64,000 nucleotides of DNA. Source: Scenedesmus sp. PABB004 (taxonomy: Eukaryota). The translations under genes were made by a program, and so were the position numbers. The notes beneath the pieces were generated by a model. That model did no database searches and was not told where the DNA came from. It saw only the letters and a program-made list of their open reading frames with translations. Every line of letters begins with the position of its first letter. The first letter of the stretch is position 1. Below, piece after piece: positions 1 through 59,766 of this stretch. The stretch is from contig JABVCE010000005.1 in the NCBI GenBank assembly GCA_014905635.1, positions 806,001 through 870,000 of the forward strand, in the 5' to 3' direction.

Positions 1-1898
1 CGAGGCCCTCCGCACCATCGCCTTCAAGGTGCGCGCCGCGCGGGCATGGCGGGAGGGCGGCCGGGGAGGCTGGCAGCCCGGGGGACCGGCGGCAGCGGCC
101 AATGCAGCGGGCGCGGGCACGGCGGCCGCGCGGCGCGGGCGGTGATCAGCGCGGCCGGGCCCCGGCCGCGGGCCGGGCCCCGCCCGCGGCCGGGCCCCGC
201 GCGAGCGTGGGCGGCTGTGGTGCTGCGGCCCGCCAGCCGCGCGGCGGCGGCCGCCCCGCACGCGCTGCCCGCGCTGCGCGCCCGCTCGCTGACGCCCCGC
301 CGCCGCTCCGCTGCGCCCGCAGGTGCGCACCGCGTCCTGCGCGGGCACCGCATGCGTCAACAGCTTCGGCGACGAGCAGCTCGCCGTGGACATGCTGGCG
401 GACAAGCTGCTGTTCGAGGCGCTGCGCTTCTCGGTGCGGCGCGCGCGCGCGGGCCGACATCGCGCCGGGCGCGCCGCTCCCTCCTCTCTCCTCCCCCTCT
501 CCCCCGCCGCTCCCTCTCTCTCCCTCCCCCCGCCGCCCGCGCACCCGCGCCGACGCGTCGCCGCGCGCGCCGCCCTGTCGCCCGCGCGCGCGCAGCACGT
601 GTGCAAGTACGCGTGCTCCGAGGAGGTGCCCGAGCCGGTCGACGTCGGCGGCGAGGGCTTCTGCGTCGCGTTCGACCCGCTCGACGGCAGCAGCATCGTC
701 GACACCAACTTTGCGGTCGGCACCATCTTTGGCGTGTGGCCGGGCGAGAAGCTGAAGGACATCACCGGCCGCCAGCAGGCCGCCGCGGGCATGGGCATCT
801 ACGGCCCCCGCACCATCTTCTGCCTCGCCGTCGCGGGCTACCCCGGCTGCCACGAGTTCCTGCTCATGGACGACGGCAAGGTGCGCCGGCGGCCGGGCGG
901 GCCGTTTGTCCGCGGGCGGGCGGCTGTGGGGGGCGGCCGTGGGGGCTGCGCCCGCGGCGGGCTGCGCCGGCGGCGGCGGCGGCGCGGGCTGACCGCGCCG
1001 CCCTCCCTCCCCCGCGCCCCGCGCGCGCAGTGGGTGCACGTCAAGGAGACGACCGAGATTGGCGAGGGCAAGCTCTTTGCGCCGGGCAACCTGCGCGCGA
1101 CGTTTGACAACCCCGCGTACGAGCGCCTCATTAGCCACTACCTGGGCGAGAAGTACACGCTCAGGCGCGCTGCCAGTTGCAGCACCGCGTGCCGGCGCAC
1201 ACGCACGCACGCGCGCGCGGCCGCCGCCCTGCCGCGCGCCGCGCGGCGCGCGCCGCTCGCGGGCCGTCTGCGCCGAGCGTCTGCGTGCCAGCCGCGGCCG
1301 CCTCGCTCCCGCGCCGCCGCTCACCCGCGCCCGCACACAACACACTCCACCCCCGCGCCGCAGGTACACGGGCGGCATGGTGCCGGACGTGTTCCAGATC
1401 ATCGTCAAGGAGAAGGGTGTGTTCACCAACGTGACCTCGCCCTCGACCAAGGCCAAGCTGCGCATCCTCTTTGAGGTCGCGCCGCTCGCGCTCATGGTCG
1501 AGCAGGCCGGCGGCGCGAGCAGCTGCGACGGGCTCTGCGTCTCCGCGCTCGACGTGCCCATCCTCGGCTACGACCAGCGCACCGAGATCTGCTTCGGCAG
1601 CGTCGGCGAGGTGAAGCGCTTCGAGGAGTACCTCTACGGTGAGCCGGCGGCACAGCGGGGCGGGCGCGCGGGCGCGCGGAACGCACGGGACCGCGCGGGC
1701 CCGGCGGCGCGCGCGGCGCGGTCGGCAGGGGCCTGGGCCGGCGGCGGAGGGCAGGCAGGCGCCGCGCGCGCGGCGGAGGGCGTGCGCGCTGACCGCCCCG
1801 CGCCCCTCCCCCGCGCCTCTCGCCTCCCCCGCGCGTGTGCAGGCAACTCCCCCCGCTTCAGCGTGGCCAACGAGCTGGAGGCCAACCCCCGCCAGTGA
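1..1898 (+). CDS. SBP1: Sedoheptulose-1,7-bisphosphatase (5' part outside window). Exons 1-28, 323-433, 596-880, 1031-1164, 1364-1638, 1843-1898
   Basis: Spliced peptide has [44 protein letters not shown] and [13 protein letters not shown] (FBPase/SBPase motifs), plus the SBPase CAGTAC redox motif. Intron 1165-1363 is GC-AG. Confidence 0.96.
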
Positions 1899-2597
1899 GC
1901 GGCGGCGCACGAGCCCGCGCGCGCCGGCGGCGCGCCGCCGCAGCGGCCGGGAACGCCCGCCCCGCTGCGCGGCGCGCGTGACGCCCGGCGCGGCGGCGCG
2001 GAGCGCGCAGCGGCCACAGCTGCTGCGCGGCGGTCTAGATAGGGGCTGTTGGGCCGCGGCGTTGACCCAAGAACCGCGGGGCGCGCTCCCAGCGCGCCAG
2101 GGGTGTGGCCGGCTGAGCTGGCACGGCAGGGCCAATTTGTGCGTGCGAGCGGAGCGGTAACTGCGCTGACCTGCGCACGAGCGAGGGGCGCCCGAGGGCG
2201 CCAGCAGCCGTTACGCGCGCAGGCCCGCCAGCGCCACCGGCCGCGCCGCCACGCTTGTGCAGCGTGTGCGGCGCCTCTGCCAGCCAGGCATCCGATTCGC
2301 CGCTGCGACCCCCGAACCCCCCTCCCCTGCTCGCTCTGCGCGGCGCGCCCGCCGCGCCGCGCCCGCACGCTGCCGCTCGCCCCCGCCCGCCGCCGCCGCC
2401 GGCGGCCGGCCGGCCGCGGCACCACGCGGCAGCCGAGCGTCGCGGGGAAGAAATGTACAGCTGCCCCCTGCAACACCCAGTGGCCCCCGGAGGCCAGGCG
2501 CCGCCGCTGCTGCACCGGCTGCCGCCCGCCGCCCGGCGCGCCCGCGCGAGCTGCCGCTGCAGGCCGCCGGGCGCGCCAGGCGGCTGCCGGCGGCCCC

Positions 2598-2666
2598 CCG
2601 CTCGCCGCGCGCCGCTCGCCGCGCGCCGCTCGCCGCGCGCCGCTCGCCGCGCGCGCTCGCCGCGCG
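2598..2666. repeat. 14-bp minisatellite (CCGCTCGCCGCGCG) x ~5 in the YKT6 3' region
   Basis: Tandem copies read directly from the sequence. Confidence 0.7.
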
Positions 2667-57100: not shown

Positions 57101-57279
57101 TCGATCACCTCGGGCAGCGCGACGCTCGCCTGCACCGACGCGCCGTCTGCGGGCGCGCAGCAGCGGGCGCGCGGCGGCGCGGCGCGGCGCGCGGCACGGC
57201 CTGGGCGCGCCGCGCGCCGGGGGGCGCGGCGAGGGCGCGAGCCGCCGGCGCGCCACCCACCCAGGAGCTTGCGGTTCAT
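54166..57279 (-). CDS. RBBP5: RBBP5/Swd1 WD40 subunit of the COMPASS H3K4 methyltransferase; 1-nt frameshift near 54812-54816
   Basis: PEVIEEYLE, FNRRGTLLA, IWDFETRGVA, ENWSAFAPEFKELEANEEYVEAEDEFD, VDV, SSDEE, LHWLP. Confidence 0.92.
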
Positions 57280-57675
57280 GGCCGGCCGCCGCTCAGCGCA
57301 TGGCGCGCCGCGCCGCGCTCGCGCCGCTGCTGCCGCCGCGCGGGCGCCTGGCGTTGCCGCGGCGTGGCGAGGGCGGCTCGTGTGGCGAGATCAGCGTGCG
57401 AAGAGCGGTATGGTGCGGCGGCGGCGAGGTGTGGCGGCCAAAGGGGAAGAGGGGGAGGTGGGTGATGTCGGCGAAACCGTTTAGTCCTTGTCAAACGAGG
57501 TTCAGTGCGTGTGGCCCTCTCGGCTCTGGCGCGGCAGCACCCTCCTCTCCATACGCCGACAGCAGCGGGCGCGTGGCGGCGTCGCAGCTCGCCGCGCCGA
57601 CAGCAGCAGCGGGCGCGGCCCGCCGGCGGCGCCGCCGCCGCTGCTGCAGGAGGAGGCCCGCCGAGCCCTGCTGCG

Positions 57676-59766
57676 ATGCAGCAGTACGCGCGTGCCGCCA
57701 AGGAGCTGCTGGACAAGGCCGCCAAGCTCACGCTGCCGGCGGCGCGCGACGACGCCGGCGGCGCCGCGCCGCGGCCGCTGGCGCCGCCGGTGCTGCTGCA
57801 GGCGTCGTCGTCGTCGCCGCACGCGCCGCGGCCCACCGTGCCGGTGGAGGCGCGCGTGAGCCGGTTCAAGCAGGAGCTGCTGGCGAGTCGGATCAACCTG
57901 GAGGAGCTGCGCCGGCTGTCGTGCGGCGGCATCCCCGACCGCGACGGCCTGCGGGCGATGACCTGGAAGGTGGGCGGGCGAGCTGGAGCCGCCACGGCCA
58001 CGGCCACGGCTGGACTGGCGCTGCGTTGCGCGCGCAAGCCAGCGCTGCGCGCCAGCGCGCGGCGCGCGGGCGCGTCGGCGGCGGCGGCGCCAACCGCTGC
58101 AACCGCCGCAACCGCCGCTGCCGCCCCGGCCATGCCACACGCAGCTGCTGCTGGGCTACCTGCCGCCAGACCCCACGGAGTGGGACGCGGTGCTCGCGGC
58201 CAAGCGCGCGCAGTACAAGCAGTTCTGCGAGGAGCTGATCGTCGACCCCAAGCAGCAGCAGCAGCAGCAGCAGCAGCAGCAGCAGCAGCAGCAGCAGCAG
58301 CAGCGGGGCGGCGAGCTACCACCGAACCCTAGCGCCAACGACGGTGGCGGCCAGCGCGGCGGCGCTGGCGACCGCAGCGGCAGCGCCGGCGCCACAGCAC
58401 CGCGCGGCGGCGGCGGCAGCGGCGGCGGCGACCCGCTCGGCTCTGGCGGCGCCGCCGCCGCGCCGCTGGCGCCCGACCCGCCGCCGGCCGCGGCGCCGCT
58501 GGAGCTGGCGGCCGAGGAGCCGGACGACCACCCGCTCGCGCTGCACGCGGGCAGCAAGTGGCACACCTTTTTCAAGGCGCGGCCGCCGCGCCGCCCGCCC
58601 TCGCTCGCCCGTCGCCGGCCCCGGCCGCGCGCCTGCCGCCGCGCCGCCTCCCACGTCCCACCCCGCGCCTCGCGCCTCCCACCGCCCCTCCCGCGCCGCG
58701 CACCCGCGCCCGCGCCGCGCTGCTTGCAGGACAGCGAGGTCATGGATCAGATCACGCGCGACGTGCTGCGCACCCACCCCGACATGCACTTCTTCAGCGG
58801 CGACGGCCCCGGCCCCGCGGGCCACCGCGACGCGATGCGCCGCGCGCTCTTCATGTTTGCCAAGCTCAACCCCGGGCTGCGCTACATCCAGGGCATGCAC
58901 GAGCTCTTCGCGCCGCTGTACCACACCTTTGCGACCGACCCCGCGCCCGGCGCGGACGCGGCGGCCGAGGCGGACGCGTTCTTCTGCTTCGTTGAGCTCA
59001 TCAGCAGCTTCCGGGACCACTTCTGCGCCTCGCTCGACAACAGCACGAGCGGCATCCGCGCGACGATCGCCAAGCTCGTGGCGCTGCTCGCCGCGCACGA
59101 CCCGGGCCTCGCGGAGCACCTCGCGCGCCACAAGGCGCGCGCCGCGCGCTGCGCGCCGCCGCGCTGAGCGCGCCGGGCGGGGCCCCGCCGGCGTGCAGCG
59201 CGGGCAGCGCGCGCGCCGCGACGCCCCGCCCGCGGCCGCCGCGGCGCGGCGCGGCGCGCGTGCCCCGACCCCGCCGCCGCCGCCGCCGCCGCCGCCGCCG
59301 CCGCCGCCGGTGTGGTGCGCGCGCAGGTGGAGCCGCAGTTCTTCGCGTTCCGCTGGATCACGCTGCTGCTGACGCAGGAGTTTCCCTTCCCCGACGCCGT
59401 GCGCATCTGGGACACGCTGCTCGCCGACCCCTGCGGCCGGCTCGACTGCCTGCTGCGCGTGTGCGTCGCGCTGCTGATGCACGAGCGCGACACGCTGCTC
59501 GCCGGTGCGCGCGCGCGCGCGCCGCGGGGCTGAGCGCGGGCCGGGCCGCCGCCGCCGCGCTGCGTGGCGGGCGCTGCGCCAGGCGCTGCTGCGGCGCGCC
59601 CTCCGCTGCTGCTCAGCGGCGCTGGCGCCGCCGCCGCGGCCGGGTGCTGCCGGGCGCAGGCGACTTTGCGGTGATCGTCAAGACGCTGCAGCGCTACCCG
59701 AGCGTGGACGTGGACGTCATCCTGCGCGCCGCCGCGCGCCTGCCGCCCTGCGCCACCGGCTGCTGA
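57676..59766 (+). CDS. TBC1D13: TBC-domain Rab GAP (TBC1D13-like), 5 exons
   Basis: GIPD..GLR..TWKLLLGYLP, QITRDVLRTHPDMHFF, KLNPGLRYIQGMHE, EADAFFCF, PQFFAFRWITLLLTQEF. Confidence 0.9.
58253..58303 (+). repeat. (CAG)17 coding polyglutamine tract
   Basis: Perfect CAG array, in frame in exon 2 of the TBC gene. Confidence 0.95.

Follow-up and report, generated by a model that had tools for sequence, protein, structure and literature searches.

GC-AG introns with donors behind an exonic AG are common in a G+C-rich nuclear window of the green alga Scenedesmus sp. PABB004

In the present study, we analyzed the introns of a 64-kb window of Scenedesmus sp. PABB004 (the whole stretch of DNA under study; positions are counted from its first letter), which is green-algal nuclear DNA with an overall guanine plus cytosine (G+C) content of about 80%. 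Roughly 20% of the introns predicted in the window (about 26 of about 134) began with GC rather than GT and ended with AG. The original prediction, made from the DNA letters, had put this share at about one in five (25 of about 120 introns), which agreed well with our count. Based on the comparison of DNA and proteins, the abundance of GC-AG introns in the window was confirmed to be real and well above chance. All 20 GC donors that we verified by homology stood directly behind an exonic AG, whereas 12 of the 35 verified GT donors did so; the dependence on the exon side that had been proposed for these donors was thus borne out. According to a survey of plants, animals and fungi (PMC7072748), GT-AG introns make up 97.9-98.7% of introns, the GC-AG share is typically about 1-2%, and the G+C content of splice sites is weakly correlated with that of the genome, so that the earlier claim of a share far above the usual one also held against the figures of that source. 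These introns are very probably ordinary U2-type GC-AG introns, which were made common by GC-biased substitution and are tolerated where the exon side of the donor compensates.

The base composition of the window called for caution in placing donors. The G+C content was uniform over the window (77-82% in each 4-kb bin), and the dinucleotide GC accounted for 21.6% of all dinucleotides vs 3.7% for GT, a roughly sixfold excess. Since a convenient GC is easily met by chance at such frequencies, each junction was tested against decoy dinucleotides. A gene parser built on codon log-odds, in which GT and one other donor dinucleotide were permitted in any context, used the decoy CG 119 times and GC 106 times, with similar gains in score. 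These results indicated that coding potential alone could not separate GC from decoys or place a donor, and that an artefact could lie behind a count of convenient GC donors made by hand; thus homology tests were used. Single-exon Pfam matches provided gene names and three junctions, and were too coarse for most others. A protein-to-genome spliced aligner with split-codon states was run unconstrained, constrained, and as a 16-way contest, in which the acceptor was fixed at AG, each donor dinucleotide was permitted alone, and the scores were summed over homologs.

The contests covered 49 introns of TOC75, RAD54B, an arabinokinase-like gene and squalene synthase (SQS), and GT or GC, which together represent a quarter of the dinucleotides, was best at 48 of them. 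The 12 introns of TOC75 were divided into seven GT and five GC, and no other dinucleotide won. The 15 introns of RAD54B gave ten GT and five GC; one of the latter (43206-43159, 48 nucleotides, three of six homologs, margin 3) was doubtful and gap-like, and was dropped as a likely gap artefact. Among the 12 arabinokinase introns, GT was best at nine and GC at two, one of which was firm, while the other (5751-5359, 393 nucleotides, margin 1.8) was doubtful and was dropped; at the remaining intron, the decoy CG at 7261 was best by 0.3 and was replaced by a GT three bases away at 7258. The ten SQS introns gave seven GT and three GC, the latter comprising one firm call, one moderate call, and one at 31203 in which GC was best by 2.0; this last was replaced by a consensus GT-AG intron (31211-31052) that scored within 1-3 units of it. 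The arabinokinase homologs that span the whole protein were at most 56% identical, and about nine introns of this gene, including two candidates at 8811 and 7489, lay outside the resolved set.

TOC75 provided the most detailed comparison. In unconstrained alignment with transcript-derived relatives (84% identical for the query exon), nine of the 12 introns fell directly on GT-AG or GC-AG, and the remaining three were only synonymous shifts away from such a solution; ten homologs gave a similar pattern. With AG acceptors, GT plus GC yielded a score of 3114, equal to the unconstrained optimum, compared with 2890 for GT alone and 3059 for the best of 14 decoys. The GT-only alignment therefore lost 224 score units and misplaced five junctions, which supported the view in the original prediction that standard gene predictors would mis-model genes of this kind.

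According to the testing results, 20 of the 25 GC donors named beforehand were fixed by protein homology and none was refuted; the other five were kept as candidates. Each of the 20 introns runs from GC to AG and restored both frame and protein in spliced-alignment contests, or in continuity with solved proteins or Pfam profiles. In the motifs below, exonic letters are in capitals and intronic letters in lower case. Five junctions showed residue-exact continuity with solved proteins. For the SBPase intron (1165-1363, plus strand, CAGgcgcgc), the exons corresponded to residues 184-227 and 229-319 of Chlamydomonas SBPase (7b2o_A), and the missing residue was the codon split between AG and G. For the RBBP5 intron (54876-55049, minus strand, AAGgcgcgc), the read-through matched residues 320-338 and 339-360 of human RBBP5 (5ov3_A) on the two sides of 58 intron-encoded residues. 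The other three belonged to a p38/ZMYND12-like gene (16300-18100, minus strand), which matched the Chlamydomonas protein 8glv_Le, annotated as "Subunit of axonemal inner dynein"; the match spanned at least residues 4-307, and one exon gave E = 8e-52. Here the exons joined between residues 235 and 236 of 8glv_Le at the intron 16868-16991 (CAGgcgcgc), between 211 and 212 at 17064-17184 (CAGgcgcgg), and between 25 and 26 at 17858-17934 (AAGgcgtgt). The GT donor at 17443 in this gene was fixed in the same manner, with the exons joining between residues 163 and 164, and three of its five predicted introns were GC-AG. In addition, the read-through of the CFAP251 intron (20118-20201, plus strand, CAGgcgcgc) aligned with Chlamydomonas FAP251 (8glv_LY) on both sides with zero indels, at moderate identity.

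Most of the other verified introns, all on the minus strand, were fixed by the contests. In TOC75, the GC margin was 11 at each of 34555-34702 (CAGgcgcgc), 35485-35638 (CAGgcacgc), 35870-36063 (GAGgcaagc) and 36133-36368 (CAGgcgcgg), and 6 at 36465-36675 (AAGgcgcgc). The RAD54B introns were 44724-44835 (CAGgcgcgc; five of six homologs, GC ahead by 10.2), 45995-46123 (AAGgcgagg; six of six homologs, local identity 0.88, GC ahead by 11), 46970-47111 (AAGgcgagg; five of six, ahead by 9.6) and 47196-47291 (CAGgcgcgc; four of six, ahead by 5.8). In SQS, the intron 29697-29918 (CAGgcgcgc) was firm, with GC ahead by 11, and ahead of GT by 47, in eight of eight homologs; the support for 29294-29433 (CAGgcgcgc) was moderate, with GC ahead by 3.4, and ahead of GT by 9, in seven of eight homologs. 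The arabinokinase-like intron 7568-7726 (CAGgcgcgg) was backed by six of six homologs, with GC ahead by 9.5. Two plus-strand introns were placed by Pfam profiles. At the DUF3067 intron (4519-4621, CAGgcgcgc), positions 32-68 of PF11267 extended to the last residue of one exon and positions 70-98 started from the second residue of the next; the alternative GT at 4504 would remove five profile positions. At the TBC/RabGAP intron (59135-59326, AAGgcgcgc), which has Pfam-level support only, the flanking exons matched positions 45-158 and 161-216 of PF00566, and no GT occurred within 45 bases on either side of the donor junction.

The five candidates were less well placed. For the arabinokinase-like gene (minus strand), 8680-8811 (CAGgcgcgc) was proposed by three of eight distant homologs and the ab initio parse, and 7380-7489 (CAGgcgcgc) by two of eight homologs and the same parse. 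The candidate in CFAP251 (18964-19085, plus strand, GAGgcgcgc) was based on the ab initio parse and the consensus motif only. The one in TBC (58577-58729, plus strand, AAGgcgcgg) was based on the parse and the motif, the PDB alignment beginning downstream of the junction. The candidate in NSE1 (50520-50648, plus strand, ACGgcgcgt) was atypical in having no exonic AG; it was the sole frame-preserving junction found by eye, a GT four bases downstream gave an out-of-frame product, and neither flanking exon had a Pfam match. A further GC donor called by the parser in RBBP5 (56628-56842, minus strand, CAGgcgcgg) was not counted, as its predicted acceptor was apparently too far downstream; the residues that we take to precede LAWSRSG in the human protein fall inside this predicted intron.

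We further compared the two donor classes in a curated set of 35 verified GT and 15 verified GC donors, to which five GC donors were added by later verification. AG occupied positions -2 and -1 in 15 of 15 GC donors and in 12 of 35 GT donors (Fisher p = 8e-6), and in 12 of 12 GC donors taken from alignments that imposed no context; the five later donors also stood behind AG. Consequently, the curated donors behind AG numbered 15 GC and 12 GT, about half of them GC. On the intron side, the classes were similar: G at +3 in 33 of 35 GT and 13 of 15 GC donors, C at +4 in 26 and 12, G at +5 in 33 and 15, and C at +6 in 27 and 11, respectively. The intron start common to both classes was GYGCGC and not GTRAGT, and the classes differed on the exon side. 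As stated in the original prediction, the GT donors were mostly of the GTGCGC type (the 26 with C at +4), and the GC donors resembled (C/A/G)AG followed by GCGCGC or GCGCGG, the 15 curated donors reading (C/A/G)AG followed by GC(G/A)(C/A)G(C/G). The median intron lengths of the two classes were also alike (154 and 138 nucleotides). The consensus of U12-type donors is RTATCCTT, and this motif was absent from the 15 curated GC donors, all of which read GC(G/A)(C/A)G. The exonic AG fits compensation for the mismatch at +2, the other donor positions being nearer to the consensus than in GT donors.

To estimate the window-wide rate, we re-ran the parser, which is homology-free, with donors limited to GT or to one other dinucleotide behind AG. 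GC behind AG was used 32 times with a gain of 197 nats, whereas none of the 14 decoy contexts was used more than 18 times or gained more than 56 nats; the decoy CG behind AG occurs 1231 times in the window vs 729 times for GC behind AG. This parse gave 134 introns with 32 GC donors, 24 of them with the consensus motif and eight without. Compared with the verified introns, it was exact at 40 of 50 (80%), and its errors included at least one false GC call (31901) and two missed true GC donors; at one true GC donor, a GT was used instead. The 24 motif-bearing donors and the two verified but missed ones made up the count of about 26. In six homology-resolved genes, the GC share was higher (16 of 56 introns); these genes were partly chosen because they had been flagged in the original prediction, so this figure overstates the rate, and the lower value of roughly 20% was taken.

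The TOC75 introns were then compared with those of lower-GC relatives, as had been suggested. Metagenome contigs were scanned with the TOC75 alignment, yielding 14 loci that represent about eight distinct organisms and range from 50 to 69% in G+C, and introns were regarded as orthologous when they shared both residue and phase relative to the reference protein. The same aligner, free to pick GC, placed all 92 intron calls in these loci on GT. Four of the five GC introns in the window had GT orthologs: the donor at 36675 (AAGgc) corresponded to AAGgt in 12 loci, that at 36063 (GAGgc) to GAGgt or GAAgt in ten, that at 35638 (CAGgc) to CAGgt in seven, and that at 34702 (CAGgc) to CAGgt in two (L003 and L004). 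At the position of the donor at 36368, the related loci had no intron. The TOC75 introns of the window that kept GT at shared positions did so behind GCT, GTG or CGG, and in one case behind CAG. Since the GT orthologs lay behind AAG, GAG or CAG, these comparisons of a single gene indicated T-to-C changes at +2 in old introns, and the four GC donors are, on the evidence of these alignments, derived from GT donors. In L003, the locus with 69% G+C, the TOC75 donors were of the GTGCGG or GTGCGC type, with no GC donor in ten introns. The downstream donor consensus thus seems to shift before T at +2 is lost.

These observations fit a scheme in which extreme GC-biased substitution would supply T-to-C changes at +2 everywhere, by which about a fifth of the window donors would have been converted. 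Selection would remove such changes except behind an exonic AG, and donors without AG would stay GT. The C mismatch at +2 would be offset by extra U1 pairing at -2 and -1 together with exon contacts of U5 loop 1. In the U1 pairing register, AGgcgcgc and a GT donor of the form Ggtgcgc without A at -2 form equal numbers of Watson-Crick pairs. We infer that the GC-AG introns are removed by the major spliceosome; the compensation would act through U1 and U5 pairing, and the driver would be GC-biased mutation or gene conversion. According to a general account of splice sites (PMC3167603), the major spliceosome acts on GC and GT introns alike, a C at +2 does not pair with U1, and GC donors are on average stronger at their remaining positions; the need for a strong flanking consensus, which had been presented as established, is textbook knowledge in that account. 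Parker et al. described two donor classes with opposed interaction potential for U5 loop 1 and the U6 ACAGA box (PMC9803359), and by their sequences the window GC donors would belong to the exon-side class of this scheme, as far as that source sets it out. In mammals, GT-to-GC conversions are reported to exceed the reverse (PMC2490688).

Several alternative explanations were weighed. If the GC donors were an artefact of base composition, a GC could be picked out close to the end of any exon, and either the real donors would be GT sites close by or the gene models would be wrong. The sixfold excess of GC over GT, the equal use of the decoy CG in the context-free parse, and the dropped calls at 43206-43159 and 5751-5359, where the aligner took GC-AG as a cheap gap in poorly conserved regions, are all in keeping with such an artefact. 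However, the outcome of the 16-way contests, in which no decoy attained the unconstrained optimum, the five junctions that are residue-exact against solved proteins and the sixth without an indel in CFAP251, the gain in nats far above that of any decoy context, and the absence of GC donors from the 92 introns placed by the same aligner in relatives have largely refuted this explanation, which we regard as highly improbable. A different objection is that the window is unrepresentative, with GC donors clustered in these genes and a genome-wide share of a few percent. The window covers only 64 kb, and the donors were unevenly spread, from five of 12 introns in TOC75 to none in the parse of several genes. 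Nevertheless, 12 of about 23 genes, located on both strands and throughout the window, carried verified or motif-candidate GC donors, and the G+C content was uniform throughout, which makes this objection very unlikely to hold. As for the expansion of ordinary GC-AG introns under GC-biased substitution, several points weigh against it. Its junctions are predicted from the comparison of DNA and proteins; homologs that come from genome annotations could rest on faulty gene models, although transcript-derived and solved proteins agreed with them; the share of 16 of 56 is inflated by the choice of flagged genes; the window-wide 20% relies on an ab initio parse that is only 80% exact, with false and missed GC calls; the rate was drawn from 64 kb only; and the NSE1 candidate at 50520, if real, would stand as the sole break in the AG rule.

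The original prediction had further suggested that 5' splice-site recognition was shifted to tolerate GC pressure, possibly through exon-side pairing or altered contacts of U1, U6 or U5, and this reading of the cause was partly supported. An altered spliceosome, in which a modified U1 5' end or modified U6 or U5 contacts let C at +2 serve as well as T, with GC donors no longer weak, would account for the very high GC share and for GT donors whose own GTGCGC start is poorly suited to the usual pairing with U1 and U6. The confinement of GC donors to sites behind AG, which GT donors do not share, is instead expected if C at +2 still needs compensation. The strict dependence on AG suggests that C at +2 is still a costly, penalized mismatch, which argues against a re-tuned U1. 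Moreover, the GC share is higher in Emiliania huxleyi, and its authors stated that the universal machinery can deal with GC donors (PMC4028052). An Rfam scan of the window at gathering thresholds matched nothing, and no small nuclear RNA (snRNA) gene was found within it. Taken together, a re-tuned U1 is unlikely, altered snRNAs are not required, and we consider an altered spliceosome quite unlikely. It is also unlikely, if slightly less so, that the 5' splice-site code itself is shifted, with recognition resting mainly on the exonic AG, through U5 loop 1 and the U1 positions that face -2 and -1, and on a G at both +1 and +5, a nearly dispensable T at +2, GC commoner than GT behind AG, and perhaps accompanying changes in U1, U6 or their proteins; if this were true, the alga would offer a natural setting in which to explore the limits of relaxing the GU rule.

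Previous studies have reported high GC donor shares in other algae, precedents that the original prediction had overlooked. In E. huxleyi (65% G+C), 56-65% of donors are GC with canonical acceptors, GT-based models mispredicted its genes, and the authors put the share down to genomic GC content (as described in PMC4028052). In two pelagophytes, Aureococcus anophagefferens and Pelagomonas calceolata, the predicted GC-AG share is about 14-17%, which was attributed to high GC content, compared with 0.32% in a lower-GC relative (according to bioRxiv 10.1101/2024.10.30.620910). The window resembles E. huxleyi in being from a GC-rich alga with common GC donors and AG acceptors; however, GC is the majority donor in that haptophyte, as far as its report covers the matter (PMC4028052), and a minority donor found only behind an exonic AG in the window, whose genome is far more GC-rich and yet has a lower share. 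The pelagophytes are similar in share and in high GC content, but they belong to the stramenopiles, their genes have few introns and their figures are predicted (bioRxiv 10.1101/2024.10.30.620910), whereas the window is intron-dense and green-algal, with junctions fixed by homology. Compared with the U2-type GC-AG introns known from plants, animals and fungi, those of the window share the GC start, the AG end and a stronger remaining donor, here the exonic AG, in line with the compensation reported for GC donors in humans and elsewhere (PMC3167603); they differ in following the donor with GCGC instead of RAGT and in a share of about 20% instead of the 1-2% given in the source above (PMC7072748). 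The window therefore fits a GC-pressure expansion like those in E. huxleyi and the pelagophytes, with a share many times 1-2%, AG acceptors and about 80% G+C. A full-text literature search, which did not extend to subscription journals or supplements, turned up no green alga reported to have a high GC-AG share. The present results extend the haptophyte and pelagophyte precedents to a green alga, their useful contributions being the rule on the exonic AG and the pairs of orthologous introns with GT and GC donors.

Other features of the window were also observed. Coding periodicity and single-exon Pfam matches indicated that the two strands together carry about 24 nuclear genes rich in introns, including SBPase, DUF3067, arabinokinase-like, TELO2-like, CFAP251, SQS, TOC75, RAD54B, NSE1, RBBP5 and TBC/RabGAP genes. 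Their closest protein relatives were in the chlorophycean green algae Tetradesmus, Scenedesmus and Monoraphidium, with 78-86% identity over single exons. A histone H3-fold gene at 25900-26800 (plus strand) had a long divergent N-terminal tail and matched Pfam Histone positions 21-111 over two exons; its appearance is that of a centromeric variant and not of the canonical histone. Long in-frame CAG/glutamine runs were present within coding exons of TBC (58270-58300, plus strand), of the RAD54B N-terminus (47540-47650, minus strand) and of another gene (27700-28000, minus strand); on the antisense strand they read as leucine runs and created spurious open reading frames. Simple repeats were frequent in these short introns, such as a (GCC)n run adjoining the acceptor at 31375-31450 and a C tract of about 17 bases near 31090 in SQS (both on the minus strand), and (TG)n near 36150 in TOC75. 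In RAD54B, a 102-nucleotide GT-AG intron (45851-45952, minus strand) was backed by eight of eight homologs, and the ab initio parse read through it in frame. As stop codons are very rare at 80% G+C, in-frame intron retention would often escape notice.

For this genome, the results mean that predictors and aligners limited to GT would misplace about one in five junctions in the window, shifting frames or losing conserved residues, and that annotation and mapping of RNA sequencing reads must permit GC-AG. They also provide a clean rule for the decay of the near-universal GT under GC pressure, which takes place only behind an exonic AG. Splice-site composition thus appears to track genomic GC content in a predictable, context-dependent manner.

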